Positions 22,916-60,840 of a DNA stretch of 64,000 nucleotides are shown here, in pieces. The translations under genes were made by a program, and so were the position numbers. The notes below the pieces were generated by a model. That model saw only the letters and a program-made list of their open reading frames with translations, made no database searches and was not told the DNA's origin. The stretch is from Gemmataceae bacterium (lineage in GTDB: Bacteria > Planctomycetota > Planctomycetia > Gemmatales > Gemmataceae). The stretch lies in contig DATANR010000134.1 of assembly GCA_036266155.1 (NCBI GenBank), positions 21,526-85,525 on the forward strand, written 5' to 3'. Position 1 is the first letter of the stretch. Every line of letters starts with the position of its first letter.

Positions 22916-23033
22916 TCAGCTATCGGTATGCGACCGGGCTGACACCACCCGCTGTACTCGTGATCGCGACAATCTTTCTTTGGGTGACCGCCAAACGACC
23001 CGGAATATTGACTCATAGAAAGAACTGTTTCGT
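22912..23033 (+). pseudogene. possible 5' gene fragment truncated at the low-GC island junction
   Basis: ATGA-coupled to the DUF5678-like gene. MISYRYATGLTPPAVLVIATI resembles the N-termini of small retropepsin-like proteins that I recall as partners of such genes. The reading frame then runs into the antisense of the DUF4435 gene and loses protein-like character. Confidence 0.2.
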
Positions 23034-23975: not shown

Positions 23976-23977
23976 GC

Positions 23978-25339: not shown

Positions 25340-25680
25340 CAGCGTTCGCTCCTCGGGCGACAACCGCAGTCATCCTTCACCGTGGTTCTGATCACGACAG
25401 CATTACTGAAGGGCGCTGCACTTCTTAGAGCAGCTGTGTTCCCACCGGCTCGCCTTATCCAGCTCGATACAACCGTCTGAGCAGAGTTTACCGTCGGCAA
25501 CACGCGTAGGCTACTACGACTCGAAATCAAGAAAATAAAATCGCGACCTCTGGATGGAAAAATAGAGCATTCGAGGCCTTCGCCGACCCAATGGATCCCC
25601 TGCGGCAAGCGACCCGTGCTAGGTGTTACGCCGCCAGGCAAGCTTCATTTGCGAACTGCGTCCGCCTGGGCTGCCCGACC

Positions 25681-26595
25681 TCACACCCCCTTGATCGCCG
25701 TCCCCTGGATTTCGACGTTCGACAGTTCCAGGCTCTTGATCGTCCAGTACAGCATGAAGACGAGGACGCCGGCGAGTTCGACCAAGAGGACGGTGGAGCG
25801 CAGGCCGTACCAGTACAGCCCGACGGCGAGCACGGGGACGAGGCCCATCAGGGTGCCGGTCAACAGATAAAGGCTGCTATACACTTTCTGACGCGTTGGG
25901 TCGGTCTTGAACAATTCCTTGAGCGTGTCGTCGGCGTGGAACCAACAGACGCACGCGATGCCGAAGAAGAAGGTGAGCGCGCCGGCATAGTGCAACCAGC
26001 CTCGCAGCGTTTGCGGCAATGAGTTCTTCAGGTCGGCGTCGATCGCGTGCAGACCTTGTGCGATGGCTTTGGCCTTATCCGCTTTCTCTTGAATGCCATC
26101 CTGTAATTGCTGGGTGTCCGCTTTCAGTTGTGCCGTTTTCGCGTCGTTATTGGAAGCAATGTCTGATTCAACGATGATCTGTGCTCGCTCATTGCTCTGT
26201 TGCAGCGCGAGTGTCACGTCGTCGGCGACGACGGCGGGCTGGTTCCATTCCATCGGGCAGAGGGCCACGACAAGCAAGCCGATCGCGGCAATGTTGAGGA
26301 CCCAGCTCTCTTTCCACGTGAATCCCTTGTAGGCGAACAGCATCATGGCGACGGAGACGAACGTGGCGACGAACAGGTCGCGGATCGGGATATGCCCGAG
26401 GAGCTTCTCCTGGCTGTGGTAATACGCGGAAATGGAATTTCGCTGAATCCCGTCGCCTTTCGTGAAATGATACGCGAGCAGCGACACCAAAAAGATGATT
26501 GCGACAGCGACGAGCAGGTGCCGCAGGCTCTTGTAAGTCGCCACCATCGACAGGACGAGTTTCTCGACGGCCGGATCGGTCTTCTGGACGTGCAT
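25681..26595 (-). CDS. multi-pass membrane protein with ~90-aa coiled-coil loop, hypothetical
   Basis: 304 aa. About 6 TM segments. ISAYYHS motif. Central Q/A/D/K-rich loop (QQSNERAQIIVESDIASNNDAKTAQLKADTQQLQDGIQEKADKAKAIAQG) encoded by a lower-GC stretch. Confidence 0.7.
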   Translation of the reverse strand: MHVQKTDPAVEKLVLSMVATYKSLRHLLVAVAIIFLVSLLAYHFTKGDGIQRNSISAYYHSQEKLLGHIPIRDLFVATFVSVAMMLFAYKGFTWKESWVLNIAAIGLLVVALCPMEWNQPAVVADDVTLALQQSNERAQIIVESDIASNNDAKTAQLKADTQQLQDGIQEKADKAKAIAQGLHAIDADLKNSLPQTLRGWLHYAGALTFFFGIACVCWFHADDTLKELFKTDPTRQKVYSSLYLLTGTLMGLVPVLAVGLYWYGLRSTVLLVELAGVLVFMLYWTIKSLELSNVEIQGTAIKGV

Positions 26596-37631: not shown

Positions 37632-40600
37632 CTACCGAATCTGCTCCGCGTACTTGACAATCGGAGCATAAAGCGGCGCCTTGTACTGGAACCCGGGTTG
37701 CTGACCCGGGTTGCCGGGCACCGCCCCGAAGCCCTGGTAGAACGGATCGGGATTTATCAAGCGAATCGGCGCCCCGCGTCCGTGGCTGTAGTGGAAGAAG
37801 CCGTCGGCTTGGGCCGACTCCAGGATAATCGTCGCCGTCGTGGCGCCCCCGTTCGACGAGGTGGGATCGATCGACTCGAGCGGCAGTCGAATGATCACCG
37901 GCTCCGCCTTGTCGCCGACGTCGAGGATCGCGAGCGACATCTTCTGCGGGTTCGGTGGGCCCGCGTTCGGCGTCGTGTCGATGATCGTCCACGGGAAGCC
38001 GTCGTAGACGCCGTCGAGCCGGATCGTCTTGAATGGCTTGACCGTCGGGTATGGCGGTCCCTGGCCGTAGATCTGGCTGTTCACCGGAATACGGCACTTG
38101 ACCTGCGACACGCTCGGCGCACCCAGCGGGTTGGGCCGCGTGTCCGGGTCGGGCATGACGTTGTAGCTGCCCGGAATCAGACCCAGCGACGGGCTGTTGT
38201 ACGGGATGCCGTTCGGCAGCATCACTTCCGGGTTGTAATCGAAGTAGATCGGCGGCGTCCCTTGCTTCGGCGACGGGCTCTTCGGCGTCAGCGGCGTCTG
38301 ATCGATCGACAGGTTGGTCCGGTCGACGATGGCGAAGAACTTGTGCCGCGTGACCGAGCCTTCGTCCGTGCCGAGTTCCTTGCCCAGGACCGGCCGGTTC
38401 GTGTCGTCGTACGGTCCGTCGTTGAGAACTTCGAAGTAACCGATCGTGGCATAGATGGCGAACGCGTTGCTGCGCGTCGTCGTCTGGTTGAACGACTTGG
38501 CAAACAACTCAAACTTCTGCATCGGGCCGGCGCTGCCGCCGGTCGCCGGCGCGAAGGTCTCGTCGCCCGTCTGGCTGGCCCACAGCGCGCCCCTGCGTGC
38601 AAGCGTTGCATCCTGTGAATTTCCAGTAGGCATGCCCGCATACTCAACCGGCCCGGCCAGGCCGACCATCGGCTTATCACCGGCCGACTGGAACGGCTGG
38701 CTGCCGCCATTCAAGCGCTGACTCACGAACGACTGCCACGCCCGGTCGACGTCGCCCTGGGTAAAGCGATTCGCCTGCTGCGCGTCGCCGATCGCGCTGA
38801 ACTGCGGGGCCGTGCCCGATCCGCCGGTAAGGTTGTTGTGGATCGTGTTCACGTTGATCCGGCCGGGGATCCGCGATCCAAACGGGATGCCCTCAATAAA
38901 CGAGCCCGGCCGCAGGTAATCGAGCGCCCGGAACAGGAACGTCGACTTGCCCGCCGGCAGGTTCGAAGGATCATCTGGGGCGTCCAGCCAGTTGGCCATG
39001 TAGGCGACACGGCGATCCTGCGGGTTGCCCGAGGTCTGTTGCATGAAGAACGCGTGCGTGAGCAGGTGTGGCTTGGTCGACACCACATGCAGCAGCTCAA
39101 TCGGGTTGAGCAGCCCGCGATCCAGATGGTTGAGCGGCATGAACGGCGTCTGCAACGTATCGTTCGTCTGCGAGCCGGGGTTCTCGTCGACCCCGCCCAC
39201 GTAGCCGCCCGGTCCGGCGTCGGCCGGCCAGTTGCCGTTCTTGGCGTTGAGCTTGCTAAACGTGTGCCCGCCGATCTGACCGTTCCCAGCGCCGCCAGCG
39301 CCCTGGCGATAGTGCTGCTGATCGTTCCACTTGATGCGGGCGTCGTACGGCTGTCGGCGCCCCCACGAATAGGTCGTGTTGAGGTCCGGCTGCATGCTCG
39401 AACCCGGGTCCGGGCCGCGCGTGCCGTTCGGCAGGAACTCGATGTGGTCGTAGACCGAGTTGCCCGACCAGTCCGGATCGATGTAATCCACCGTCACGTA
39501 CTGATTGTCCGGCGTGCCGCCAAACTCCTGGAGTGGGTCGCCGTTGTACACCACGTAGGGATTCGACAGCCGCTGGAGGACGAACATCGGCACCCACTTC
39601 GGCTTGCCGTTGTCGTCGGTGTCTTCGTTGCCCTGGGGCGGCTGTTGGAACGGCGGGTAGGTCAACGGCACGTTCAACTTGTCGTGCGTCAGGTCGGCCG
39701 TCACTGAATTGTCGGGCAGTTTGGCATCGTTGCCGCCGCCAGCGCCGCCGGCGCCAGGCGAATCGTCCGACGGCCCGATCACGTAGAACATCTTGCCTTG
39801 AACTTGGGCCTGAACGTTCGGCTGCACTGTCTTGCCGTTCGGGGCCGACTTCGATTTCGTGAAGTCAATCACGCGCGGCCAGCCGTTGCCCTGCGGCGGA
39901 TTGGCCGGCGGCGTCGGCAAGCCCGTCACGTTGTCGAAATCGAGCATCTTGATGTTCTGCGGTTGACCCACCGGCATCTTGTACATGACGATCCGGTAAG
40001 CCGTCTGCAGGTTGGCCGCCGAGTTCAGGTTGGTCGGGTCGGTGTGGACCTTTTCCTCCAAGTTCGTCCGATATCCGCCGTGCGTCGGGTCGGTGTTCGG
40101 GGCCGCCACGGTTGCGCCATCGCCCATCGGGTCCCAGTTCTGGTCGCCCAGCGAGCCGGGCGTCAACGCGTTGTGCAGTTCCAACCAGCACCGCAAGCTG
40201 AGCGGGTCGCCCGCCCGCTTGTTGTTCTTCATCGGAATGGCCGTACCCTTGTCCTTCGGGTCGTTCTCGATGCGGGTGTAGGTCTCGTTCATCACGAGCC
40301 GCGGGCGCTCGAAACCATAGACCCACCCATCTTTGATGCTGACGCCGGTCGGGTTCCAGTTGAAAGCCGTGCTGATGTCGTCATTGTCGATGTAGTCGAC
40401 GATGTTGACCGCCAGTTGGGCCAACCAACGCAGCGAGTTCACCTCGGCGGGCGCCGGGGCGGGCATCGTGTAGACAGCCGGCAGACCGGGACCGGGCACA
40501 GCCAGGGTCGGCATCACGCCCGTCGTCGCGGCCCGCAGGCGATAATAGATATCCTTGGCCAGGTCTTGCCGATCCTTCAACGCCCGCTGGTAATTACCAA

Positions 40601-42953
40601 CGTTATCCGGCCCCAGAGGCAGGTCGGTCCGCGTGCGGTAATCAGTCAGCTTGCGATTGAGGTCGACCGGCCCGAGCATCGCTGCGAGCTTGGCACGATA
40701 GGCATCGTCGTGGTCCGGCGCCGCCCCGCCGAACGTCGGCTTGGGACTGCTCGAGGCCGACGGGTTGAACGGTTGCGGCGTGCCATACGGGTAGGTGGCG
40801 CCCATCACGAAGCTGCCCGTCGTCGGGTTCGGCAGCCACGGGCCGGCGCCCGGCAGGTTCAAATCGCTACTGAGCGTCGTAATGCCGAACCGCGAGTTGA
40901 ACTGCCCATTTTGGAAGTACGAGTTGCCCAGCGTGCTCGAAGCCAGGGCGGCGAGGTCGCTGTTCGGGTACTTGCCATAGTTGTACTTCTCGTTCAGGAA
41001 GCGCATTTCCTCGGGGCCGAACGTGCGATCGATGCCGGCCGGCGTCGACTTCTTCGTCGTCTTCATCCAGTACGGGTTGTACATGGACGGGTGGCCGGTC
41101 CGCTCGTCGTACGGGGTGCCGGGGATGGCCATCCCGTTGTCGTACCGGCTGTCCGGATCGGGATAGGCAATGGGCGGACCACTCAAGAAGGAAGGCCCGA
41201 AGACCGTGCTTGTCGTGTGACCGAGGAACGGCAAGCCCGGGTCCGACCAGCGCTTGGCGGTCGCACGCGTGATGTAGCCGCTGGCGGGGTAGTAGTTGGC
41301 GGCGACACCGTTAAAGTCGACCAGGCCGTAGAACGGCGCGCCGGCGCCCGGCGACGGCTGGTTCTGCGGCGGGGCCGCGTATTCGTTCGGATAGGCGCGC
41401 TGCCGGCGATTCGGCATCGTGTCACCCGCGAAGCGATTGTGGACGCTCGTCGCCGCGTATTTCCATTCCGGCGGCGGCGCCGGATCGCTTCCGGTCCGCC
41501 AGGCCAGCGCCGGACGCGACAACATGGCCGCTTCGTTGCTGTTCCATTGGGCGTTCGGCGGGTTGTTCATGCCAACGCTGATCGGCTGATACGCAGCCGG
41601 AATCTGCATCGGCATGACCATCACCGGATTCACTTCCCACGGCCCAATACCCTGGTTCGAATAGTGGCCGTATTGCGGCACCATCACCGTGCGGAAGTTC
41701 GGCACCGTCGACGGCGGCTGCTGGCCCGGGTTCGGGGCCGACGCCATGTTGTCCGGCAGCGGATAGAAGTTGCCGGCCGTGTTCACGTTCACCCGGCTAT
41801 CCAGGTCGACGATCAGGAGCGCCACGAGCGGCTTGTAATTCTTGCCCTGCCAGCGGCGGACCGGGTAATCGAAGTCCATCCACACGCTGTCGTACTGCAT
41901 TCCGCCCGGCTTGCCTTCAAGGTTCTCGACGTCGCCGTACGTGCCGTCCGGCAAGCCGTTCGGGTAGAAGTTCCACTTCGGGTGCGGGAAGTAGCTGATC
42001 CACTGATTGGCGCCGACCTGGACCATGTGGTCGACCGGCCGCGGCCGCAGGGTCTTGTAACGACCAAGCGAATTCGTCCACGGGTTCGGGTTTGAAGTCG
42101 GATGATTAGCCGCAGCCGTCACCGCGAACGCCTGACCGTAGGTCGGCCCCGTCAGCGGATCGACCGGCGGCATCCATTGCGGCACCTGCGAGGGCGGCAT
42201 CGGCGGCTTGCTCGGATCGACCATCAAGTACGGCCGCTCGTAGGAGGGCAATAGGATGCGGCCGCTCGTCGGGTCCATCGCCGCCAGGAACATGTTGTTC
42301 AAGTCGGGATAGGTGTAGTTGGCGTTCTTGGCGTAATAGCGATAGGTTGCCGCGTTGAAGGCCGGCACGCTCAACTTGGGATTGCGGGCGTAGTTGTTAT
42401 CGATGTCGAACATCCATTGCAAATTCGGATCGACTGCGGCCATCCACGGCGCCCAGGTGAAGTTAATCATCTGGTCCGAGTATGGGATGGGCGGCTTGGA
42501 ACCGCCGTTGTCGCCGAGCGTGGTCGGGTGAATGAGTTGCGGATTGACGCGGCCGACGCCGTTGAACGGCTGCGTCGCGTCGCCGACCTTGCTCGGTAGA
42601 TTGAGCGCTGGCGTACCCGGGTCGATATCGAACCCGTAGATGAGCCGAGATAAGTCGTGACCGCGGAAGCTATCGAACGCCCCGCCGAGATCGTTCGGCG
42701 GTCCGTAAATGACGTCGCGCATCACGATATTGAAGATCGTTTCCGGCTCCGGCGGCGCGCCGTCGTGCGTCGGCGGCAAAACGCCCGACTGCCCGCCGTT
42801 GCCGCCGTCGCGATAGACTTTGGTCTGGTCCGCCTCCGCGATCGAGTAGAACACGAACGTGAGGCCGAGGACCAGGAAGATGGACAAGAAGGCCACGACG
42901 ATGACCGTGACATTCCCGCGCCGGCCGCCTTTTGACGTGCTGTAGGGCCGCAT
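37632..42953 (-). CDS. giant GspK-like minor pseudopilin / pilus-tip protein
   Basis: 1773 aa from MRPYSTSKGGRRGNVTVIVVAFLSIFLVLGLTFVFYS (cat 42951-42953, GGAGG 8 nt upstream). Single N-terminal helix without Glu5. SRVNVNTAG (41773-41811) and GRINVNTIH (38839-38869) are GspK-type motifs. C-terminal SNAFAIYATIGYFEV..HKFFAIVDRT. Confidence 0.75.
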   Translation of the reverse strand: MRPYSTSKGGRRGNVTVIVVAFLSIFLVLGLTFVFYSIAEADQTKVYRDGGNGGQSGVLPPTHDGAPPEPETIFNIVMRDVIYGPPNDLGGAFDSFRGHDLSRLIYGFDIDPGTPALNLPSKVGDATQPFNGVGRVNPQLIHPTTLGDNGGSKPPIPYSDQMINFTWAPWMAAVDPNLQWMFDIDNNYARNPKLSVPAFNAATYRYYAKNANYTYPDLNNMFLAAMDPTSGRILLPSYERPYLMVDPSKPPMPPSQVPQWMPPVDPLTGPTYGQAFAVTAAANHPTSNPNPWTNSLGRYKTLRPRPVDHMVQVGANQWISYFPHPKWNFYPNGLPDGTYGDVENLEGKPGGMQYDSVWMDFDYPVRRWQGKNYKPLVALLIVDLDSRVNVNTAGNFYPLPDNMASAPNPGQQPPSTVPNFRTVMVPQYGHYSNQGIGPWEVNPVMVMPMQIPAAYQPISVGMNNPPNAQWNSNEAAMLSRPALAWRTGSDPAPPPEWKYAATSVHNRFAGDTMPNRRQRAYPNEYAAPPQNQPSPGAGAPFYGLVDFNGVAANYYPASGYITRATAKRWSDPGLPFLGHTTSTVFGPSFLSGPPIAYPDPDSRYDNGMAIPGTPYDERTGHPSMYNPYWMKTTKKSTPAGIDRTFGPEEMRFLNEKYNYGKYPNSDLAALASSTLGNSYFQNGQFNSRFGITTLSSDLNLPGAGPWLPNPTTGSFVMGATYPYGTPQPFNPSASSSPKPTFGGAAPDHDDAYRAKLAAMLGPVDLNRKLTDYRTRTDLPLGPDNVGNYQRALKDRQDLAKDIYYRLRAATTGVMPTLAVPGPGLPAVYTMPAPAPAEVNSLRWLAQLAVNIVDYIDNDDISTAFNWNPTGVSIKDGWVYGFERPRLVMNETYTRIENDPKDKGTAIPMKNNKRAGDPLSLRCWLELHNALTPGSLGDQNWDPMGDGATVAAPNTDPTHGGYRTNLEEKVHTDPTNLNSAANLQTAYRIVMYKMPVGQPQNIKMLDFDNVTGLPTPPANPPQGNGWPRVIDFTKSKSAPNGKTVQPNVQAQVQGKMFYVIGPSDDSPGAGGAGGGNDAKLPDNSVTADLTHDKLNVPLTYPPFQQPPQGNEDTDDNGKPKWVPMFVLQRLSNPYVVYNGDPLQEFGGTPDNQYVTVDYIDPDWSGNSVYDHIEFLPNGTRGPDPGSSMQPDLNTTYSWGRRQPYDARIKWNDQQHYRQGAGGAGNGQIGGHTFSKLNAKNGNWPADAGPGGYVGGVDENPGSQTNDTLQTPFMPLNHLDRGLLNPIELLHVVSTKPHLLTHAFFMQQTSGNPQDRRVAYMANWLDAPDDPSNLPAGKSTFLFRALDYLRPGSFIEGIPFGSRIPGRINVNTIHNNLTGGSGTAPQFSAIGDAQQANRFTQGDVDRAWQSFVSQRLNGGSQPFQSAGDKPMVGLAGPVEYAGMPTGNSQDATLARRGALWASQTGDETFAPATGGSAGPMQKFELFAKSFNQTTTRSNAFAIYATIGYFEVLNDGPYDDTNRPVLGKELGTDEGSVTRHKFFAIVDRTNLSIDQTPLTPKSPSPKQGTPPIYFDYNPEVMLPNGIPYNSPSLGLIPGSYNVMPDPDTRPNPLGAPSVSQVKCRIPVNSQIYGQGPPYPTVKPFKTIRLDGVYDGFPWTIIDTTPNAGPPNPQKMSLAILDVGDKAEPVIIRLPLESIDPTSSNGGATTATIILESAQADGFFHYSHGRGAPIRLINPDPFYQGFGAVPGNPGQQPGFQYKAPLYAPIVKYAEQIR

Positions 42954-44540: not shown

Positions 44541-45743
44541 CTACTGCTTCGTAGCCCCCGCCGCTGACACTGTACCGCGGTCGAACACTTCCACCAAATT
44601 GTCGAATACCACGGCAATTCCCGAGGGACCATACGTTTGATCGATCGCGTAGGTCCCCGGCAGCGCGGGCTTGATCGGTGATTCGAGTTCGAGCGCCAGG
44701 AAGCCCGCGATGTCCGAATTGATGCCTGAGACGCGATAGAAATCGAAGGTCATGTACGGCACGAACGCCTGTGGCGCGTTCGTGGGCGGCCTGATGATGC
44801 GGTGGAAGGCGATCCACCCGCCGCGCCGCAGGTTCGGGATCACCTGGCCGCCCAACTGAACGAGGATGTTCTTTTGCCCGGGCGCCGCATAGGCGTTGAA
44901 CGCGGTCTCTTGCGACGGTGTGTCCGTCGCCGAGCGGGCCGCGTATACGAGGACCGACACGTTGGCTTCGGCCGGGATGTCGTTCCGCGGCCGATAGACC
45001 AGCCACGCCACGTTGTAGCGGCCGGCCCGCTCGATCTGCCCCGTAAAGTCGGCCGGTTCGCCCATCACCGAAAAAGTCGAGCCGTCGCCGGGCCGGGCGA
45101 AGGTCATGTCGTCGAGCAAGGCCGTATTGCGAACTACAGGCGTGGGCGGGCTGAACTGCGGATACGGAAACGGCGGATTCGGCCACGGTCCCGGCGCTGG
45201 CGGCGAAGGCAAAGTGGGGTCGTACCAATAGCCGCCGTTCACGTTGATGCAGCGCCGCAGCGTCGTCCGCGATGGCAGAACTGACTGACCGGCGATCAGG
45301 AATTGATCGTTCGTACCCGCCTTGGTCAAGAAGCCGACGGGGTCGACCAACACCGGGAAACTCGGCTGACTCAGCGTCGGCAAACCGACGCTGGCCGCGG
45401 CCGCACCCGCGGGAATGGTGCCGTTGATGCCATAGTTCTTGTTCGGGTGATTCTCGAAGGCCCAGAGCATCGGCTCCTGCGAGAAGTAATAGGCGTCCGC
45501 GTTCGAAGCTCGGATGTTGCCGCCGTTCGGATCGTTCCACGCGGCCTTCCAGTAGTAGCGGAAGGTCTGATCGGAGTTGACGCCGTGCGTGGTGCTGCGA
45601 TCCTGCGTGATGGCGCGGGCCATGTTCACGGCGCCGATCGGGAACAGCGCCATGATGCAGACGAGGCCGATCGCCATGATGCCGGTGGCGACCATCACTT
45701 CCATCAGCGTCACGCCGGAGCGTCGTCGTTGGTTCGCCGTCAT
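44541..45743 (-). CDS. prepilin-type N-terminal domain protein (large minor pseudopilin)
   Basis: 400 aa. RRRSGVTLMEVMVATGIMAIGLV. Confidence 0.85.
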   Translation of the reverse strand: MTANQRRRSGVTLMEVMVATGIMAIGLVCIMALFPIGAVNMARAITQDRSTTHGVNSDQTFRYYWKAAWNDPNGGNIRASNADAYYFSQEPMLWAFENHPNKNYGINGTIPAGAAAASVGLPTLSQPSFPVLVDPVGFLTKAGTNDQFLIAGQSVLPSRTTLRRCINVNGGYWYDPTLPSPPAPGPWPNPPFPYPQFSPPTPVVRNTALLDDMTFARPGDGSTFSVMGEPADFTGQIERAGRYNVAWLVYRPRNDIPAEANVSVLVYAARSATDTPSQETAFNAYAAPGQKNILVQLGGQVIPNLRRGGWIAFHRIIRPPTNAPQAFVPYMTFDFYRVSGINSDIAGFLALELESPIKPALPGTYAIDQTYGPSGIAVVFDNLVEVFDRGTVSAAGATKQ

Positions 45744-45773: not shown

Positions 45774-46889
45774 TTAGAGCCCCGGCGTCGATCCAGTAAA
45801 TACGTTGGCGTACGGGCTGGAGCCGGTGATGTCGTACACGAAATGCGGCGCCACCTTGCCGGTCCGCGTGTAAATGGCCAACAGCAACGCGTCGTTGCCG
45901 CCGCCCTGCGGAGCGGCTTGCCGATCGGCGTTCTGAATCCACAGGATGATCTGCCCCGTCGGGGCATTGGCCACCACGCCATTCGGGTTGAACAGAATGT
46001 CGAGGTTGCCGCCGAGCGCGCCGACCGGATCGGTCAAGCGGGCCGGCGCCCAGGCCGAGATCGGCTGACCAAACTGGGCGGTCAGATACGGCTGGCACGG
46101 CGAACTGCGGGCCAAGTCGATGTACACGTCCTTGTTCAGTTGCAGCGTCGGCTCACCAATGAGCGGCCGCGGCTGACGGATGACGCGGAAGTTGTTTGTC
46201 GACGTCCACACGTTGCCGATCACCGCGGGCGGCGGCGACGGATTCGGGAAAACTTCGGCCCCGTCGATGATGCGATCGAGGACGAGTTGAGCGAACTTGG
46301 CCGGACCGGTCGGAATCGGGGGCGCCGTGGCCGCCGGCGGCGGCGACGTGAAGCGCCGGATGCCGGCGACGGCGGCCGGGCTGCCCGTCAGTTGGAACGT
46401 GTCCCCCGGCTCGACGCCATCCCAGTTGATCCACAGATTCTGCGGCGGCGGCAACAGGTACGTCGGAATGTAAGTGTTGTTCGGATCCTGATAGAGTGTC
46501 ACGACCGTCAGGAAACCAAGGTTGCCCGGCGCGCCCGCGAAGATCAGCGGGTCGTAGCACTGTTCCGTCCGCACATAGATCTTGATCCCCGGCCCACGCG
46601 GCGCGACCGGTTCGGGCTGCTCGATGTACTGCAGCTCGACCACGCGGCCGGAGCCGGGTGAATCTTCGATGAGCCGGATGCCGCGTGCCGACCCGTCACG
46701 GATGGCCGACTGCTTGGCCAGGTTGAAGTAGCCGTGAATCTGCGTGACGGCGTTGGGCGTGCCCTTGTGCCGATCAAGGTTTGGCAGGAACAGCACGGCC
46801 AGCGTGGCCAGCGCGATCATGATGCCGATCACCACCAGCAATTCGAGCAGGGTGAACGCACGCCGGCGGCCGACCATTCGCGTGGTCAT
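45774..46889 (-). CDS. prepilin-type N-terminal domain protein (large minor pseudopilin)
   Basis: 371 aa. GRRRAFTLLELLVVIGIMIALATL. Confidence 0.85.
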   Translation of the reverse strand: MTTRMVGRRRAFTLLELLVVIGIMIALATLAVLFLPNLDRHKGTPNAVTQIHGYFNLAKQSAIRDGSARGIRLIEDSPGSGRVVELQYIEQPEPVAPRGPGIKIYVRTEQCYDPLIFAGAPGNLGFLTVVTLYQDPNNTYIPTYLLPPPQNLWINWDGVEPGDTFQLTGSPAAVAGIRRFTSPPPAATAPPIPTGPAKFAQLVLDRIIDGAEVFPNPSPPPAVIGNVWTSTNNFRVIRQPRPLIGEPTLQLNKDVYIDLARSSPCQPYLTAQFGQPISAWAPARLTDPVGALGGNLDILFNPNGVVANAPTGQIILWIQNADRQAAPQGGGNDALLLAIYTRTGKVAPHFVYDITGSSPYANVFTGSTPGL

Positions 46890-47868: not shown

Positions 47869-48873
47869 TTAGTTGTCCGAACCGAGAACGTACCGCGCGA
47901 AGTTCGCCAGGTCGTCGTTGCCGTCCTTGGTCTGGTACGGTGAGCCGCCCGGATAGTAGGTGGAGTTGTTGCCCGGCGTGCTGCCGGCGCCCGGCACGCG
48001 ATTGCGGCCCGGGCTGACGATCTGGTATTCCTGGGTCTGCATGTACTTGCCGTCTTTGCCGATGTGCGGATTCATGCCGCCGTAGCCGCCCACGTTGGTG
48101 AAGCCGCCGGCGCTCGCGCTGGGATTGAACACCGGCTGGTAGAGGCCGTAGTAGTAGTAATCGTTGCCGCTGCGCGAGCTGAAGTAGTAGTAGACCGATT
48201 CAGCAAGGTTGTTGTTGCTGTGCTTATCCCAGTACGGATCGTGGTAGTGGCCTTGCGAATCGATACGGTCAGGCTTGAAGTCGAGGAACGGGCCCTTGGC
48301 CTGGGCGCCGTTGGTCGGCGGGCCGGACTGGCCGCTCTGGACGTTGAACGGGTTCTGCGGCGAATTCAGGAAGCCGGTGCGCGTGCCAATCCAGTTCGCG
48401 CCGTTGAAGCCGTACGGCCGGGAGTCGCTCGGTGGAATGCCGCCCAGCAGGAACACCAACAGTTGGTTGCCGTCCAGGTAAATGTCCCCAGTGTTCGCCG
48501 GCAGCGGCGTGATCCCCGGCATGCCAGGCACGAAGGCCTTCGGCCACACCTTCGAATAGAAGTCGCGGCTATCCGCCAGCGCCGCGTTGAACTGGGCCAC
48601 GGTGGGGCCGCCCGGCGGCATCGTTGTGCGCGGATTGTAATTGCTTGACAGGATGAACGCCGTCGGGACGAACTTCACGTCGTACGTCGACTTGAAGTTC
48701 TCGATCGACGTGCCCAGTTCGCCGATTTCGGCTTTGCACCGGGCCCGTGTGGCCGCTTCGCGGACCTTTTGCACGGCCGGGAGCAGCAGGCCGATCAACA
48801 AGGAGATAATGGCCATCACCACCAACAACTCGATCAGGGTGAACCCGGATCGGCTCGCGTTTGCCCGTCGCAT
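47869..48873 (-). CDS. prepilin-type pilin with DUF1559-like N-terminus (candidate major subunit)
   Basis: 334 aa from [46 protein letters not shown] (cat 48871-48873). I did not see the H-X9-DG C-terminal motif of DUF1559. Confidence 0.8.
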
Positions 48874-48933
48874 GGCAGGTCTCCCGTATGTGCCAGGGGC
48901 GTCCCCCCGGTCTTCCGCGTGAAGCATTATTCG

Positions 48934-50178
48934 CTACTTGCTCAAACCTTCCAAAAGTCCAAGCATCGGCAAAAACAAGGCCACAACGATGGTCCCAATG
49001 ATGCCGCCGAGCACGATGATCATGATCGGCTCCAGCAAACTAATCAAGCTCTTGACAGCTGTATCCACTTCCTCGTCGTAAAAGTCTGCAATTTTGTATA
49101 GCATCGTGTCGAGGTCGCCGGTCTCCTCACCGACCTCGACCATGTTCGTCACCATGTCGTCAACCAAGCGCGACTCGCGGAGCGGGTCGGCAATCGTGTC
49201 GCCCTCGCGGATCGACTCGTAAACCCGCTGGAACATCCGCTCGAAAACCGCGTTGTTCGATGTCTCGCGGACGATCGCCAGCGATTCCAGAATCGGCACG
49301 CCGGAAGAAACCAGCGTACCTAACGTCCGCATTGTGCGTGCCACGACCGTTTTTTCGACGATCTTGCCGATAATCGGCACCCACAGCAGCATTCGATCCA
49401 AAGCATAGTTCCCGGCCCGGCTCAGGCGGATCAATTTCATCAACAACCAGAGCCCGAGCGGCACCAGCGGCAGGCTCCACCAATATTTCGAGCACCACAT
49501 CGAAACGTCGATGAGGAATTGCGTCAGTTCCGGCAGCTTGAGCCCGAACTCGCGGAAGATCTTTTCGAACTTCGGGATGATGGCCACCATGATGAAGATC
49601 AAGATGCCGACGGCGGCCGTGATAACGACGGCTGGGTAAACCATGGCCCCGATGACTTTGCGCTTGAGCGTCTGGCTCTTTTCCTTGAACTCGGCCAGGC
49701 GCTTCATGATCGTTTCGAGAGCACCGCCGGCCTCACCCGCCTTGACCATGTTCACGTAGAGTCGATCGAATGCCCGCGGATGCTTGCCGAGCGCCTCGGA
49801 CAGCGTGCTGCCGGATTCGACGTCCTCGACCACGTCGATCAGCGCGTTCTTGAGAGCGCTTGGCCGCATTTGTTTTTCGAGAATGCGCAACCCGCGGAGC
49901 AGCGGCAGACCGGCGTCCTGGAGAATGGAGAATTGACGCGTAAAGAGCACGAGGTGCTTGGTCTTCACACCGCCGATGACGAAGGTCTTCTTGGACTTCT
50001 TGTAACCGGCTTTCTTCTTCTTGCCCTTCTGCTTGCCACCGCCCACCGCGGTGAGCTTGGTGACGAAGTAGCCCATCTGCTTGATTTTCTGTTGCGCCTC
50101 TTCTTCGTTGGTTGCCTCGATCTCGTCCTTCACCTCTTCCCCGGAGGTGTCCATCGCTTCGAATTTATAAGCTGGCAT
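48934..50178 (-). CDS. type II secretion system F / PilC family platform protein
   Basis: 414 aa. MPAYKFEAMDTSGEEVKDEIEATNEEEAQQKIKQMGYFV. Two GspF repeats and three TM regions. Confidence 0.9.
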   Translation of the reverse strand: MPAYKFEAMDTSGEEVKDEIEATNEEEAQQKIKQMGYFVTKLTAVGGGKQKGKKKKAGYKKSKKTFVIGGVKTKHLVLFTRQFSILQDAGLPLLRGLRILEKQMRPSALKNALIDVVEDVESGSTLSEALGKHPRAFDRLYVNMVKAGEAGGALETIMKRLAEFKEKSQTLKRKVIGAMVYPAVVITAAVGILIFIMVAIIPKFEKIFREFGLKLPELTQFLIDVSMWCSKYWWSLPLVPLGLWLLMKLIRLSRAGNYALDRMLLWVPIIGKIVEKTVVARTMRTLGTLVSSGVPILESLAIVRETSNNAVFERMFQRVYESIREGDTIADPLRESRLVDDMVTNMVEVGEETGDLDTMLYKIADFYDEEVDTAVKSLISLLEPIMIIVLGGIIGTIVVALFLPMLGLLEGLSK

Positions 50179-50349: not shown

Positions 50350-52314
50350 TCAACTCTCATCCTCAAGGATGGTCTCCCGCACCACTTCATCCACAGTCGT
50401 GACCCCGGAATACAAGGCATCCAGGCCGCGTTCACGCAAGCCTTTAGTTCCCTTGGAACGGGCGTATGCTCGCAGTTGGTCTGTCGACGCCCCCTTGGAC
50501 ACCATGTCCCGGATGTCGTCGTTCATGATCAGGAACTCATAAATGCCGGTCCGGCCCTTGAAGCCGAGGTTGTTGCACTTGTCGCAACCTTCGCCGAAGA
50601 AGAACTTTTTGCCGCGCACGTCTTCCGGCTTCAGGTTCAACTCCATGAGTTGATCGCGGCTCGGCTCGAATTCGGTCTTGCAGATGGGGCAAATCCGCCG
50701 CACCAGTCGTTGGGCGAGAATGCCTTCCACCGTGGCCGTGATAAGAAACGGCTCGACGCCCATGTCGCGCAGGCGGGTGATCGAGCCTGGCGCGTCGTTT
50801 GTGTGCAGCGTGCTGAACACCATGTGCCCGGTGAGCGAGGCCTGGATGGCGATCTGGGCCGTTTCCAGGTCACGGATCTCGCCGACGAGGATCCGATCCG
50901 GGTCCTGCCGCAGAATGGCACGCAGGGCGCTGGCGAACGTCAAGTCGATGTCGGAATTGATCTGGCACTGAATGAGGCCGTCGATTTCGTACTCGACCGG
51001 ATCTTCCGTCGTGATGACCTTGTCGGTGATCTCGTTCAACTCGGAGAGCGCCGAGTAGAGCGTGGTCGTCTTGCCGGCGCCGGTCGGCCCGGTCACCAGG
51101 GTGATGCCGTTCGGCTTGTGCATCACCGCGCGGAAATCTTGCAAAATGTCCTGCGGCATCCCGATCTTTTCGAGATCGAGGCCGACGCGGCCCTTGTCGA
51201 GAACGCGGATGACGATCGATTCGCCGAACATGGTGGGCAACACGCTGACGCGCATGTCGACCGTGGCGCCGCCGATGTTCAGCTCGATGCGCCCGTCCTG
51301 CGGCAAGCGCCGCTCGGCAATGTCCAGGTTGGACATGACCTTGATACGCGAGCTGATGGCGGTCGCGAGGTGTCGCGGCGGCGGGACCATTTCGTAGAGC
51401 ACACCGTCGCAGCGATAACGCATCTTGTATTCGTCTTCGAACGGCTCGAAGTGAATGTCGGACGCGTGGTCCTTGATGCCCATCAGGAGCACCATGTTGA
51501 CCAGCTTGCGGACCGGGGCCGCGTTGGCCATTTCTTCGACGGACGCGATGTCGATCGACGTTTCGCGCTTGCCGTAGCCCAGGTCGACGTCCGTCGCCAT
51601 TGCGTTAATGATGTCGGCGATCGACTCTTCCTTCGTGGTCGAATAGGCCTTAGTCAGGGCCGCGTCGATCTTCGACCGCGGTGCAAGCTGAGCGACCACC
51701 TGGCGAATGCCAAGCATGTTGCGCAAGTCGTCCAGCGCCATCAAGTTGTTCGGGTCTGACATGACCACCGTCAGGACGTCTGCCTCCATCTTCAAAGGCA
51801 GCATCTTGTACAGTTCGGACATGTTCTGCGGGACGGCCTTCATGGCCTCCGGCGTCGGCTTGACTTCGTCCAGATTGACGAGCGCCATACCGTGCAATTC
51901 GGCCGTGGCGGTGAGGAGCTGGTCTTCGTTGATGAGCCCGCGATCCATCGCAATCTTGTCGACTTGCGAATCGGTCTGCCGAGCTTCCTCCTCGATCGAT
52001 TCGAGCTGCCCGTCGTCGATGAAACCGAGGTCGACGAGGATGACGCCGATCGTACGAACCGCCGGCTTTTCCTTCTTCTTCGGCGCGGGCTTGGGTGCAG
52101 GCTTCGGCGCCGGCTTGGCCGGCTCCGCAGGCTTCGCCGGTGGCTTACCCGCTTGCGGCGTAGCGGGCTGCGGCTTCGCTGGTTGAGCCGCTTGCGGCTT
52201 CGCGGGCGGGGCAGGCTGAGCGCCGGCCGGCTTGGCAGGTTGCTGGCCCGCCGGCTTCGCGGGCTGCCCTGGTTGGGCGGGCTTCTTCGGATCGTTCGGA
52301 GTCGGTGTGGCCAT
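50350..52314 (-). CDS. GspE/PilB-family assembly ATPase with ~85-aa Pro/Ala/Lys-rich N-terminal extension
   Basis: 654 aa from MATPTPNDPKKPAQPGQ (cat 52312-52314). T2SSE_N-like domain. Walker A GPTGAGKTTT. Asp and His boxes. Tetra-Cys CPICK..CDKC. Confidence 0.9.
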   Translation of the reverse strand: MATPTPNDPKKPAQPGQPAKPAGQQPAKPAGAQPAPPAKPQAAQPAKPQPATPQAGKPPAKPAEPAKPAPKPAPKPAPKKKEKPAVRTIGVILVDLGFIDDGQLESIEEEARQTDSQVDKIAMDRGLINEDQLLTATAELHGMALVNLDEVKPTPEAMKAVPQNMSELYKMLPLKMEADVLTVVMSDPNNLMALDDLRNMLGIRQVVAQLAPRSKIDAALTKAYSTTKEESIADIINAMATDVDLGYGKRETSIDIASVEEMANAAPVRKLVNMVLLMGIKDHASDIHFEPFEDEYKMRYRCDGVLYEMVPPPRHLATAISSRIKVMSNLDIAERRLPQDGRIELNIGGATVDMRVSVLPTMFGESIVIRVLDKGRVGLDLEKIGMPQDILQDFRAVMHKPNGITLVTGPTGAGKTTTLYSALSELNEITDKVITTEDPVEYEIDGLIQCQINSDIDLTFASALRAILRQDPDRILVGEIRDLETAQIAIQASLTGHMVFSTLHTNDAPGSITRLRDMGVEPFLITATVEGILAQRLVRRICPICKTEFEPSRDQLMELNLKPEDVRGKKFFFGEGCDKCNNLGFKGRTGIYEFLIMNDDIRDMVSKGASTDQLRAYARSKGTKGLRERGLDALYSGVTTVDEVVRETILEDES

Positions 52315-52373
52315 ATCGAATAAAACCGCTGGTATTTGAGTGAGGAACGGGCGACCGTCGTTCGGTCGAAACA

Positions 52374-53549
52374 CTACTTCCGCCGCCGCCGACGATCGTC
52401 CTCGTCATCATCCTCTTCGTCTTCGTAATCCTCGTCCTCGTCTTCCTCCTCGTACTCGTCCTCGGCCTCTTCGAGACCACGCTCGACGGCCGCGATCTTC
52501 GCCGCCAGTTCGGACGGTTTCTTGGCCTTGAGCAGGATTTCTTCCTTGTCCACCAGACCATTCTTCCACAAGCCGAACAGGTTGTCGTCGAGCAAAAACA
52601 TGCCGTATTTACGGCCGGTCTGGATCGACGAGTCGATGCGGTAAACCTTGTTTTCGCGGATGAGGTTCTGGATGGCATCCGTCACCACCATCATCTCGAA
52701 GGCCGCCACCAGTCCTTCGGGCTTCTTGGGCAGGATCGCCTGTGACAGCACACCGATCAGGGCGGTGGAAAGCTGCGTGCGGACCTGATCCTGTTGGTCC
52801 TTCGGGAAGACGTCGATGATTCGGTTGATGGTGGAAGCGGCGCCGGAGGTGTGCAGCGTGCCGAACACGATGTGGCCGGTTTCCGCGGCTTCGATGGCCG
52901 CGTGGATCGTGGCCAAGTCACGCATTTCGCCGACGAGGATGATGTCGGGGTCCATTCGCATGGCCCGGCGAATTCCTTCCTTGAAGTCGGGGACGTCGAC
53001 GCCGATTTCACGCTGATTGACCGTGCACTTCTTGTGTTTATGCTGGTATTCGATTGGGTCTTCCAACGTGACCACGTGCCGATCGTAGTTGTCGTTGATG
53101 AAGTTGATCATGCTCGCCAGGGTGGTCGTCTTGCCCGACCCGGTGGGGCCCGTGACCAGAATCAACCCGCGTGGTCGCACAATCAGCGAGCGAATCGCCT
53201 CGGGCATGCCGATCTGCTCGAACGTCAAGAACTGACTCGGAATGCGCCGGAGGACCATGCCGATCGAACCGCGCTGCTTGAAGATCGCGCAGCGGAAACG
53301 AACGCCCTCGAGATATTCGATGGCAAAGTCGGCGCCGCCTACCTCCTGAAGTTCTTGCTGGCACCGGTCCGGCGTGATGGCCTTCATCAAGGCGGTGGTG
53401 TCGTCGTTGTCGAGGCTTTTGGCTTCGAGCCGGCGCAGTCGTCCGTGATGGCGAATGACCGGCGGCTGGCCGACGGCGACGTGAAGGTCGCTCGCCTTCA
53501 ACTGAATGACCGTGGCCAGAAGTTTGTCGATCTGAAGAGACGAAGCCAC
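52374..53549 (-). CDS. pilT: type IV pilus retraction ATPase PilT with acidic C-terminal tail
   Basis: 391 aa. GTG start. GLILVTGPTGSGKTTT, DPDIILVGEMRD and GHIVFGTLHT motifs. Tail EEAEDEYEEEDEDEDYEDEEDDDEDDRRRRRK. Confidence 0.9.
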   Translation of the reverse strand: MASSLQIDKLLATVIQLKASDLHVAVGQPPVIRHHGRLRRLEAKSLDNDDTTALMKAITPDRCQQELQEVGGADFAIEYLEGVRFRCAIFKQRGSIGMVLRRIPSQFLTFEQIGMPEAIRSLIVRPRGLILVTGPTGSGKTTTLASMINFINDNYDRHVVTLEDPIEYQHKHKKCTVNQREIGVDVPDFKEGIRRAMRMDPDIILVGEMRDLATIHAAIEAAETGHIVFGTLHTSGAASTINRIIDVFPKDQQDQVRTQLSTALIGVLSQAILPKKPEGLVAAFEMMVVTDAIQNLIRENKVYRIDSSIQTGRKYGMFLLDDNLFGLWKNGLVDKEEILLKAKKPSELAAKIAAVERGLEEAEDEYEEEDEDEDYEDEEDDDEDDRRRRRK

Positions 53550-53692
53550 GTTGTTCTCCCCTGTCTGGCAGTCGGCCTCCCGTTCGTTGCGGGAGGGATA
53601 AAGTCGATCACCGTCCGACCAGGGTCAGGGTATTTCGGGCGCAAACTCCTGTCACGCCCGAATTATGCCCCGCGCCTGGACTTCGGCCAAAA

Positions 53693-55429
53693 CTACTTGG
53701 TCGCCTTGCCCACGCTGGCAAGCTCCGCCGCCTCCGCGTGGCACGTACTCAACACTTCTTCCAGGGTCGTCGTCCCCTTGAGCACTTTCAGCATCCCATC
53801 CTCCAGCAGGTTCCGCATGCCGTTTTGGCGGGCTATGCGGCGAATCTGCTGGGCGGGCGCCTGAGTGAACGTCAGTTCACGGATAACGGATGTCAGCTTC
53901 ATCATCTCAAAGATGCCCAGCCGACCGCGATAGCCTGATTGATTGCAGTGCGCGCAGCCAGTGCCACGCATGAAGGTCGCCTTGGCCAGCGCTTCGGGCT
54001 TGATGCCAGCCGATCGAATTTCCCCATCGGATGGCTTGTAAGGCTTCTTGCATTTCACGCAATTCACGCGCACCAATCGCTGGGCCATGATCGCGATCAC
54101 GGAGGATGCAATCAAGAACGGTTGGACACCAATATCAGCGAGGCGGGTAATAGCAGAGGGCGCGTCGTTCGTGTGAAGTGTACTGAATACCAAGTGTCCA
54201 GTCAAAGAAGCCTGTACCGCGATCTCAGCTGTCTCCTTGTCGCGAATCTCGCCGACGAGGATGATGTTCGGCGCTTGCCGCAACATCGCTCGAATGATCC
54301 GCTGAAAGTCCAAGCCAATTTGGTGCTTCACCTCGACCTGATTGATGCCCGGCAAGTAATACTCAACCGGGTCCTCGGCGGTGATGATCTTCCGATCTGG
54401 CCGGTTCAACTCGTTGAGCGCCGCATACAGCGTGGTTGTCTTGCCCGACCCTGTCGGCCCGGTGACCAAGAAGATGCCGTTCGGACGCTTGATGATTTGT
54501 TGGAACTTCACATAGTCGTCTTCACCGAAACCGAGATCGCGGATAGATACTTGGATGCTGCCACGATCAAGAATGCGCATGACCGTTCCCTGGCCATGCA
54601 CTGTCGGCAAGAGACTCACACGAAGATCGAAGTGTCGACCCTGGATATTGATCTTGATACGACCGTCCTGAGGTCGCCGCTTCTCGGCGATGTCGATCGA
54701 GGCCATGATCTTGAAACGCGAGGTCATCGATGCGAACAACCGACGCGGCACCGCATCGCGTTCAACCAGCACCCCGTCAATTCGGTAACGCACCCGGACG
54801 CGATCCGCGAACGGTTCAATGTGAATGTCAGAGGCGCGCTGGGCGACCGCTTCCTGAATGATGAGGTTGCAGAGTTTTACCACCGGCGCGTCAGAATAAT
54901 CGTCTTCTGCCGCTTGTTTCGACGCTTCCGTCTGCGTGAAGTCGATGGCGGTATCTGTAAATTCGACCAGCATCGAGTCCATCGACTCGGTTTCGGTCTG
55001 ACCGTAGTGCCGGTTGATCGCCTCACGGATCTGCTCGTGGTCGGCCAGAACCGGCTGGACGTCCTTGTTCAGAATGAACGTGAGTTTCTGGATAACGTCG
55101 TAGTTGGTCGGGTCCGATGTAATCACCTTGAGGACGTTGCCCTCGAGCGCCAGTGGAAGCACCACGTTTTCGCGAGCCACCGACTCGGGCACCAATTCGA
55201 TGACCGCCTTGGGGATTTCAACTTCCTCCAGGTTCACGAACTGGAGGTTGTGGAACTCAGCGATCGCCCCCATGACCTCGGCCTGGGTGGCGTAATTCAA
55301 CTTGACCAGGGCTTCCTGAAGCTTGATGCCCGTGCCGCTCGCCAGGCCCTCGGCCTCGGCCAGCTGATCGGGCCCGACCGTACCATTACGGATCAAGATG
55401 TCGAGAAAGTCACCGCGCGCTTTGGCCAT
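53693..55429 (-). CDS. GspE/PilB-family assembly ATPase
   Basis: 578 aa. T2SSE_N domain. GPTGSGKTTT. CVKCK..CAHC zinc motif. Confidence 0.9.
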   Translation of the reverse strand: MAKARGDFLDILIRNGTVGPDQLAEAEGLASGTGIKLQEALVKLNYATQAEVMGAIAEFHNLQFVNLEEVEIPKAVIELVPESVARENVVLPLALEGNVLKVITSDPTNYDVIQKLTFILNKDVQPVLADHEQIREAINRHYGQTETESMDSMLVEFTDTAIDFTQTEASKQAAEDDYSDAPVVKLCNLIIQEAVAQRASDIHIEPFADRVRVRYRIDGVLVERDAVPRRLFASMTSRFKIMASIDIAEKRRPQDGRIKINIQGRHFDLRVSLLPTVHGQGTVMRILDRGSIQVSIRDLGFGEDDYVKFQQIIKRPNGIFLVTGPTGSGKTTTLYAALNELNRPDRKIITAEDPVEYYLPGINQVEVKHQIGLDFQRIIRAMLRQAPNIILVGEIRDKETAEIAVQASLTGHLVFSTLHTNDAPSAITRLADIGVQPFLIASSVIAIMAQRLVRVNCVKCKKPYKPSDGEIRSAGIKPEALAKATFMRGTGCAHCNQSGYRGRLGIFEMMKLTSVIRELTFTQAPAQQIRRIARQNGMRNLLEDGMLKVLKGTTTLEEVLSTCHAEAAELASVGKATK

Positions 55430-60807: not shown

Positions 60808-60840
60808 CCGGGGCCCTCGGATCAATTCCGTCTACCATAT

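Follow-up and report, generated by a model that had tools for sequence, protein, structure and literature searches.

We analysed a stretch of 64,000 nucleotides from a Gemmataceae bacterium (assembly GCA_036266155.1, contig DATANR010000134.1, positions 21,526 to 85,525 of the forward strand; hereafter the window), in which a single gene on the - strand encodes a protein of 1773 amino acids (aa), referred to here as the giant. The giant is likely a K-type minor pilin at the apex of a type IV filament machine in this Gemmataceae planctomycete. The filament is probably a retractable pilus with the giant as its tip subunit, which would consist of a GspK-type scaffold that carries inserted domains of unmatched fold. 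An earlier note on this DNA had described a GspK-like giant with an N-terminal helix, NVNT motifs and C-terminal strands, and this observation was confirmed. Its interpretation, a tip pseudopilin whose core is split by one huge insertion, was largely right: the kind is borne out by colinear edited profiles, by the gene position and by the helix, while the detail is wrong, as there are several inserts and the setting resembles a retractile pilus more than a classical type II secretion system (T2SS).

The pilin row and the N-terminal helix

The giant is encoded by the last gene of a tightly spaced type IV filament operon on the - strand. The operon contains the following genes, in which all five prepilin-type products bear the motif (G/A) followed by (F/V)TL.E, with Glu5.

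53693-55429, - strand: PilB-like ATPase
52374-53549, - strand: PilT/PilU-family ATPase (TIGR01420, 433.6 bits against a curated cutoff of 319.1)
50350-52374, - strand: second GspE/PilB-like ATPase
48934-50178, - strand: PilC/GspF platform protein
47869-48927, - strand: prepilin-type gene, 352 aa
46892-47848, - strand: prepilin-type gene, 318 aa
45774-46889, - strand: prepilin-type gene, 371 aa, with a GspH-like N-terminus
44541-45743, - strand: prepilin-type gene, 400 aa
43023-44387, - strand: prepilin-type gene, 454 aa
37632..42953, - strand: giant K-type minor-pilin-like coding sequence, stop included, 1773 aa, 193 kDa, isoelectric point 5.9

The mechanical open reading frame (ORF) of the giant gene runs past its ATG up to a TTG at 43010. 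The ATG is supported as the start because the N-termini of the homologues, MRP(Y/F)(S/N)TS.., match the product that begins there and a GGAGG lies 9-13 nt upstream. On the 3' side, the giant is followed by a convergent DUF4058 gene and pheT, and a promoter/terminator scan 3' of the giant gene found nothing.

The N-terminus of the giant reads RRG followed by NVTVI. The RRG (family columns R11, R12 and G13) leads into a hydrophobic helix of about 24 residues without Glu at +5, and then into an amphipathic continuation, so that the segment resembles the alpha1 helix of pilins (aa 11-48, 42810..42923, - strand; alpha1 about aa 14-60) in the family columns, the AlphaFold model and the hhalign comparison. 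As the earlier note had claimed, this is the only such helix: Kyte-Doolittle windows of 19 residues exceeded 1.6 only at starts from aa 11 to 23, and the next best value elsewhere was 1.04. Among 118 aligned family members, the -1 position was occupied by G in 87 and by A in 13, these two accounting for 100 of the 100 aligned there. Of the 111 members that have a residue at +5, 109 carry V or I and the others L or M; none carries Glu. Thus the giant has the basic residues, the G/A at -1, the roughly 20 hydrophobic residues and the absence of Glu5 that are expected of GspK, the T2SS protein K. PilK/GspK homologues invariably lack Glu5, a feature by which the apical K subunit is recognised (PMC13533445). 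In the operon, the giant is the sole gene of the pilin row without Glu5. The five upstream prepilins matched N_methyl (PF07963, TIGR02532) and the giant did not, which is expected, since K-type subunits have no Glu5. The earlier note had left room for a cleaved Sec signal. The AlphaFold model of the homologue P0092 contains a continuous helix of 39 residues (residues 12-50), and this length, together with the hydrophobic core of 24 residues, marks the helix as pilin-like, not Sec-signal-like.

Other features of the operon were also recorded. Besides N_methyl, all five prepilins had prepilin N-terminal matches, and beyond the methylation motif they had no family match. Canonical GspG/H/I/J are roughly 125-200 aa long; the operon prepilins, at 318-454 aa, are about 2-3 times that size, and the whole filament, besides its tip, may be unusually bulky. 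The three T2SSE-family ATPases, PilB-like, PilT and GspE/PilB-like, lie in tandem (50350-55429, - strand). The third has an N-terminal low-complexity extension of about 100 aa, rich in Pro, Ala, Lys and Gln (PAKPAGQQPAKPAG...KPAPKPAPKPAPKKKEKP), and its start overlaps the stop of PilT by one base.

Like GspK, the giant follows GspG/H/I/J-type genes in an operon with an E ATPase and an F platform protein. The earlier assignment as a tip pseudopilin therefore stands as regards the K position in a G-H-I-J-K-like row, but not as regards a classical T2SS setting, as the operon has PilT. The giant might still be the GspK of a genuine T2SS, in which case its head would cap a short periplasmic endopilus, act within the periplasm, for instance by plugging a gate or by touching substrates as the head of a piston, and never be displayed on the surface. 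In line with this, the profile similarity described below is specifically to T2SS GspK, alpha-domain motifs included, one of the ATPases scores best as GspE, the platform protein scores nearly equally for GspF and PilC, and the H-like N-terminus of the 45774-46889 product matches GspH. However, the operon contains a PilT/PilU-family retraction ATPase scoring above the curated cutoff, which classical T2SSs do not have, and the 64-kb window contains no gene for the secretin GspD or for GspC, L or M. Moreover, the operon pilins are far above endopilin size, a 193-kDa head on a periplasmic piston is without precedent, and the heads of other large tip subunits (CpaL, ComZ and PilY1) are extracellular. 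With PilT in the operon and no secretin or GspC/L/M gene in the window, a pilus tip subunit fits better than a T2SS pseudopilin, and we consider a genuine T2SS quite improbable.

The gene arrangement is conserved. A search of 5.8 billion proteins gave 194 relatives of the giant, and the best 120 of these were all unnamed or annotated as 'hypothetical'. Of the 120 listed, 118 looked full-length (at least 1150 aa), ranging from 1178 to 1865 aa with a median of about 1520. The named sources were Gemmataceae, Zavarzinella, Tuwongella and Fimbriiglobus. In GTDB, with one genome per species, at least 255 stretches encode a relative, nearly all in records of Gemmataceae, Gemmatales or Planctomycetota, and often with two or three genes per genome. 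In Zavarzinella formosa, the order is the same: PilT, GspE, GspF, five pilins and the giant. In 34 of the 50 related loci that have long flanks, the giant homologue is immediately preceded, on its own strand, by three or more prepilin-motif ORFs, mostly four or five.

Among the same 50 loci, about ten were orphans without pilin genes within 9 kb. In the orphan loci L011, L012, L052, L063, L065, L066, L072, L073 and L077, the giant homologue of about 1330-1520 aa lies at about 9001-13000, and no prepilin-motif ORF was present anywhere in the stretches of about 20 kb. No conserved partner gene was found beside the orphan copies, and their upstream ORFs were mutually unrelated. Some genomes combine an operon copy with orphans, for example MFD02248.bin.2.136 (L060 versus L011 and L012). 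In locus L047 (8617-16712, complete chromosome OY970367), the family match spans 7.6 kb 3' of five pilin genes and includes ORFs of 972 and 437 aa resembling one frame-split gene, followed by an ORF of 1274 aa in the same stretch. Either a second copy in tandem or disruption of the gene may account for this arrangement. Gemmatales-type giants were also found in metagenome-assembled genomes (MAGs) titled 'uncultured Alcaligenaceae bacterium' (L016, L017, L018, L024, L029, L041, L046 and L053) and in one titled 'Bacteroidales bacterium' (L036). Three to five prepilin ORFs lie upstream in all seven of these loci with adequate flanks, L024 and L041 being too short. These titles probably reflect mislabelled or contaminated bins and not the presence of the family in those taxa.

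The scaffold and its inserts

In the 26-homologue alignment (30-58% identity), conserved blocks alternate with stretches of variable length. The conserved blocks are the N-terminal helix, aa 76-100, aa 201-245, VDLDxRVNxN (aa 351-396), LAQLAVNIVDYIDxDD...WVxGxExPRxVxNE (aa 840-895), HLDRxLxSPxELLHV (aa 1272-1300), GRxPGKINxNT (aa 1351-1372), TTRSNxFAV...RHKFFAIVDR (aa 1480-1548) and the last 27 or so residues. The two NVNT motifs, SRVNVNTAG (aa 386-394) and GRINVNTIH (aa 1364-1372), are 978 aa apart, close to the earlier count of about 970. Residues D383, D385, R387, N389, G1364, N1367, N1369 and T1370 are invariant across homologues at this level of identity, so the motifs are not chance matches. 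The C-terminal strands pointed out in the earlier note, SNAFAIYATIGYFEV and HKFFAIVDRT, are among the best conserved blocks and are beta strands in the AlphaFold models.

P0092, the shortest member of the family (1178 aa), retains every conserved block. Its AlphaFold model is one confident multidomain protein, with a mean predicted local distance difference test score (pLDDT) of 85.3 and a predicted template modelling score (pTM) of 0.87. The model of the C-terminal 512 aa of the giant has a pLDDT of 72.4. The layout of the giant downstream of the helix, all on the - strand, is as follows; P values are from hhalign against GspK.

aa 85-346, 41916..42701, -: insert 1, Pro-rich with few regular elements, holding the conserved YTYPDLNNMFLAA; pLDDT about 88-96 in the homologue model; P 0.7
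aa 351-396, 41766..41903, -: strand block DSVWMD..YPV..KPLVALLIVDLDSRVNVNTAGN with the first NVNT motif, pairing with GspK WA..fP....i.D...FNLN; invariant D355, W358, D360, P364, D383, D385, R387 and N389; strands 270-281 and 295-303 in the P0092 model
aa 422-783, 40605..41690, -: insert 2, irregular with short helices and of variable length; P 0.1
aa 787-860, 40374..40595, -: helical hairpin ending in LRWLAQLAVNIVDYIDNDD (NIVDYIDNDD), pairing with GspK DWiDxD..GAED; invariant L844-Q846, N850, V852, D853, D856 and D858; helices 514-542 and 556-576 in the P0092 model
aa 863-1262, 39168..40367, -: insert 3, beta-rich domain, strand-rich at 584-860 in the P0092 model; P 0.31
aa 1272-1372, 38838..39140, -: HLDRGLLNPIELLHV ... 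GRINVNT, with the second NVNT motif, pairing with GspK SELrxVxG and iNVNT; invariant H1276, D1278, R1279, E1286, R1361, G1364, N1367, N1369 and T1370; the helical region bearing ELLHV and INVNT spans aa 1272-1490 by alignment to the P0092 model
aa 1491-1548, 38310..38483, -: long beta-hairpin TTRSNAFAIYATIGYFEV ... RHKFFAIVDR, strands in both AlphaFold models; invariant T1492, R1494, S1495, F1498, G1505, F1507, R1536, D1544 and R1545; aligned on the GspK C-terminal strands in the hand-cut core described below, weak alone (P 0.2)
aa 1550-1745, 37719..38306, -: beta-rich C-terminal extension, with strands in the model of the window protein, pLDDT 84-93
aa 1747-1773, 37635..37715, -: extreme C-terminal strand GNPGxQxxF....VVxYxxIx-COOH, a candidate cis 'C-beta' strand conserved to the last residue

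Both AlphaFold models predict a final strand (aa 1766-1772), and conservation extends through the last 9 residues to the very end of the chain. The single huge insertion proposed earlier did not hold up. At least three inserts (aa 85-346, 422-783 and 863-1262) and a beta domain at aa 1550-1745, before the last strand, separate the conserved elements. These four non-GspK regions total 1220 aa (133 kDa), and as they lie in several places, the core is interrupted several times and not once. The C-terminal extension is missing from the shortest relatives (P0092, P0077 and others) and has up to three repeats in some members. The region separating the C-terminal hairpin from the last strand contains a recurring module of about 50 aa, W.I..G..l.vD.g...E.V.V..v....f.a.f...H..G, which lies at aa ~1640-1735 in the window protein and is present in two or three copies in some homologues (three in P0050). 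Two members of the family, P0097 and P0101, have a precomputed match to PF16190.

The family was compared with GspK by hhalign. Against a low-diversity enterobacterial GspK alignment, the full protein reached a probability of 18% and the core one of 31%, and the test became informative only after a switch to a diverse alignment of 117 GspK sequences, obtained from a library at 50% identity searched with GspK of enterotoxigenic Escherichia coli, the query being verified against 3CI0_K. A hand-cut core, in which four conserved segments of P0092 (1-78, 245-300, 510-582 and 885-1178) were concatenated, aligned with GspK at a probability of 92.3% (P 5.5e-7) over 306 columns, covering GspK 2-322. 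The similarity of the edited cores takes in both the strand of the pilin domain and the motifs of the alpha domain, arranged as in GspK, and the motifs of the giant family paired with those of GspK as follows.

DSIW..D..yPV with Q.WA...fPv
LIxDLDxRxNxN with i.D.qaCFNLN
LAVNIVDyIDxDD..fGtE with l..al.DWiD.D...GAED
isP.ELLhVsa with d.SELr.V.G
GKINiNT with iNVNT

Thus the two NVNT motifs align on the FNLN and ININT motifs of GspK. In controls with the hand-cut core, the reversed GspK profile gave 20.7, column shuffles 15.3 +/- 2.5 and 15-column block shuffles 29.2 +/- 3.0. When the GspK N-terminus was kept and the rest was block-shuffled, the controls gave 36 +/- 1.8 with a maximum of 48, and none of 100 reached the real value of 58. 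Because the hand-cut core had been picked knowing GspK, five further cores were defined by smoothed column conservation alone, and these aligned with GspK at probabilities of 67-86% (P 5e-6 to 5e-5). Some of these alignments omit the N-terminal helix and still reached 80-86% over 207-236 columns. Contiguous pieces also fell in GspK order: aa 1-100 on GspK 1-92 (P 7e-5), aa 783-870 on 106-162 (P 6e-4) and aa 1262-1470 on 120-310 (P 6e-4). The four inserts, with P values of 0.1-0.8, served as internal negatives. On this profile evidence, the scaffold homology of the giant to GspK appears real but remote, and it is reinforced independently by the gene position and the Glu5-less helix.

A chance resemblance would mean that the giant is an unrelated Pro/Gly/Asn-rich planctomycetal surface protein lying beside a pilus operon. 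Short motifs of the N-x-N-T type are low in information, and the composition is biased: P 11.8%, G 9.6%, N 7.2%, Y 4.8% and W 1.7%, with only two Cys, in agreement with the P/N/G/Y/W-rich and Cys-poor character given in the earlier note. Chance is, nevertheless, very hard to reconcile with motifs that are invariant in the family at about 30% identity, with five blocks colinear with GspK at P values down to 5.5e-7, above all 100 order-shuffled controls, and with synteny in dozens of genomes.

Standard searches, by which the earlier note had expected the termini to resemble GspK, were all negative. No match to Pfam T2SSK (PF03934), T2SSK_1st (PF21687), N_methyl or NCBIfam GspK was obtained at E<=10 for the giant, the 26 homologues or the insert-excised cores; genuine GspKs do carry PF21687 and PF03934. 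A PDB sequence search with the giant gave nothing relevant, and the 26-sequence family profile retrieved no PDB GspK chain even at E<=10. Foldseek searches of the PDB with the P0092 model and the C-terminal 512 aa of the giant gave neither 3CI0_K nor 5VTM_X and nothing at E<0.3, although Foldseek aligns sequentially and a scaffold cut by inserts of 260-400 aa could escape it. Insert 3 in the P0092 model had no structural neighbour in the PDB or BFVD, the P0092 model as a whole gave nothing significant in BFVD, and the C-terminal extension, in the C-terminal 512-aa model, had no PDB neighbour. The one full-length model of the family (pTM 0.87) is thus without a PDB neighbour by Foldseek. Matches to adenovirus knob, HerA and PheRS (E 0.3-2) were dismissed as noise. 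No PilX or PilY1 (PF05567) match was found by Pfam or NCBIfam in the giant, the 26 homologues or the insert-excised cores. For the head, which the earlier note saw as a possible adhesin, enzyme or polysaccharide-binding module, the searches yielded no carbohydrate-binding (lectin or carbohydrate-binding module), beta-helix or enzyme fold.

Besides the negative matches to GspK families, chains and folds, several results weigh against the giant as a K-type tip subunit. The hand-cut core was picked with GspK in mind, and the unedited full-length profile reached only 17% against GspK. The hand-cut core minus the helix fell to 32.5 (P 1.2e-3), not above block shuffles at 29.4 +/- 4, so part of the signal consists of short motifs and the helix. 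The isolated first NVNT block (aa 340-425) preferred the ININT motif of GspK (P 1.4e-3) over the FNLN strand (P 0.086), which means that the two motifs are indistinguishable out of context. The window holds no gene for a secretin, GspC/L/M, PilM-P or another alignment-complex component, or a prepilin peptidase. Finally, we infer the tip location, surface exposure and ligand binding of the giant, and likewise the pilin-like packing and the cis return of its last strand.

Some of these results would suit a protein that does not polymerise at all, namely a signal-anchored or Sec-secreted envelope or surface protein, such as a PilY1-like accessory or a substrate, with GspK-like motifs that are distant or convergent. 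The negative family and fold searches, the roughly ten orphan loci and the behaviour of the hand-cut core without its helix are all consistent with such a protein. On the other hand, the hydrophobic core of 24 residues, part of a helix of 39, exceeds the length expected of a Sec h-region, the signature of RRG without Glu5 is family-wide, the conservation-defined cores that exclude the helix still align with GspK, the slot right after five prepilins is conserved, and a PilY1 signature is lacking. We therefore regard a non-polymerising protein as unlikely, and a K-type pilin remains our preferred reading of the giant.

A proposed head at the fibre tip

As a K-type tip subunit, the giant would be anchored in the inner membrane by its RRG-hydrophobic helix in pilin fashion. 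With no Glu5 to form a salt bridge to a preceding subunit, it could only be the first, top subunit. Its conserved blocks would fold into a GspK-like pilin domain and alpha-domain scaffold, made up of the DLDxRVNVN strand, the NIVDYIDxDD helix, the ELLHV and INVNT elements and the C-terminal hairpin. The last strand (VVxYxxIx-COOH) would return in cis and complete the giant's own sheet. In the C-beta model, the sheet of K subunits is completed by a C-terminal beta strand supplied either in cis or in trans, and GspK and CpaL are reported to supply it in cis (PMC13533445). The completed sheet would then license the docking of two upstream I/J-like pilins and start fibre assembly, as in GspK/CpaL. 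The inserted domains, about 133 kDa, would form a bulky head exposed on the tip of the fibre. This head would most plausibly bind a ligand or a surface, and PilT-driven retraction would then pull on it. The extra giant copies elsewhere in Gemmatales genomes may act as alternative heads.

GspK/XcpX, the tip minor pseudopilin of T2SSs (3CI0 chain K and 5VTM chain X; PF03934 and PF21687), is one of the known systems nearest to the giant. Like the giant, it is encoded by the last gene of a pilin row and has an N-terminal R-G and a hydrophobic helix without Glu5; the hallmarks WA..fP, D...FNLN, DWiDxD..GAED, SELxxVxG and iNVNT are colinear, and the C-terminal strands are shared, with the last strand in cis (a candidate for this role in the giant). 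The pilin sheet of GspK is itself already interrupted by an inserted domain. The giant differs in being 5.5 times longer (1773 versus 325 aa), with at least three added inserts and a C-terminal beta domain, in lying below every Pfam/NCBIfam threshold, in having no Foldseek match, and in its operon, which has PilT and lacks T2SS-specific genes in the window.

CpaL of the Caulobacter Tad system (type IVc) has a minor-pilin-like N-terminus, a large middle adhesin/sensing region and an extreme C-terminal strand that is predicted to return and complete the pilin sheet and is required for piliation (PMC13533445). By analogy, the logic of a K subunit and an adhesin in one chain, with C-beta in cis, would be common to CpaL and the giant. 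CpaL, however, is about 600 aa long, belongs to a Tad system and has one contiguous middle region, and it is likened to the giant by architecture and not by sequence. PilC/PilY1 (type IVa) is likewise a tip protein of 100-160 kDa of a retractile pilus, encoded with minor pilins and often present as several paralogues per genome, whose last strand licenses the tip complex. In contrast to the giant, PilY1 is not a pilin, has no alpha1 helix, docks in trans on PilK/PilX and has a C-terminal beta-propeller (PF05567). An identification of the giant as PilY1 was rejected, as it has no propeller match and does have a pilin-like helix. In function, the giant may resemble PilK and PilY1 in one chain.

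Modular pilins consist of a pilin module with bulky functional modules at the fibre tip, as in ComZ of Thermus thermophilus, PilB/PilC of S. sanguinis, CofB and TcpB; the ComZ module is inserted into the pilin sheet, not appended, and the largest modular pilin in an InterPro survey has 860 aa (PMC8179133, PMC6561018). The giant, by comparison, comprises a conserved scaffold and four non-GspK regions modelled as folded, its putative pilin module being recognised from profile similarity. Modular pilins have recognisable prepilin signatures, unlike the giant, none of whose modules matches a known domain.

Verru_Chthon cassette protein A (TIGR02600, profile length 1296; Verrucomicrobia, a member of the Planctomycetes-Verrucomicrobia-Chlamydiae superphylum) is another large protein encoded with prepilin-type proteins, B, C and D, and the three pilins upstream of the giant have weak N-terminal matches, respectively to cassette proteins D, B and C. 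TIGR02600 itself matched 2 of the 26 homologues, with a best E of 0.005, and not the giant; all scores fell far short of its cutoff of 332.3 bits. The block TTRSNVFAVW of P0040 matched TIGR02600 positions 1197-1220, and the excised core scored 8.9 bits. These matches suggest that the giant is only faintly related to protein A, for which no published function was found in the literature search.

If the giant is a K-type tip subunit, it would be by far the largest known of the GspK/PilK class, about twice the 860 aa mentioned above, and it would take to a natural extreme the recently proposed rule that tip complexes throughout the type IV filaments are licensed by a C-terminal strand, in cis or in trans. 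Adhesin-sized cargo would then be built into the K subunit rather than into a separate PilY1. The literature search found no paper describing such giant proteins in Planctomycetes, and the giant defines a family of hundreds of proteins of 1200-1900 aa that has no Pfam or NCBIfam model and is unstudied so far.

The giant is also a concrete candidate, open to testing, for the tip molecule of planctomycetal fibres. Gemmata and Planctopirus have pili-like fibres about 12 nm thick, which bind dextran and emerge from large crateriform structures (PMC5394234). The Gemmatales operons might build these fibres, with the giant head as the polymer-binding capture device of a planctomycetal uptake system for macromolecules, PilT reeling polymers in and the orphan paralogues serving as interchangeable heads with different ligand specificities. 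A link between the operon and thick fibres is attractive because the pilins are enlarged, but it is purely speculative and we consider it doubtful.

Other loci in the window

A PARIS-type anti-phage pair is located at 23034-25363 on the - strand. Its ATPase of 461 aa resembles AriA (E 7e-35; Pfam AAA_15/AAA_21), and the adjoining DUF4435 protein of 313 aa resembles AriB (E 5e-31). The G+C content is 0.53-0.55 at 22001-26000, compared with about 0.62 elsewhere, and this low value suggests that the pair is a horizontally acquired defence islet. At 58798-60825 and 61190-63325 (- strand), two adjacent genes encode proteins of 675 and 711 aa with N-terminal sigma-70 regions 2 and 4 of the extracytoplasmic function type. 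Each is followed by about 500 aa of C-terminal sequence without assignment, and one of them has a weak OEP-like match. At 9496-16143, a protein of 929 aa with a bpX3 domain of the MoxR-vWA-beta-propeller ternary system adjoins a surface-type protein of 1182 aa with DUF4347, PPC, Calx-beta and FG-GAP domains.

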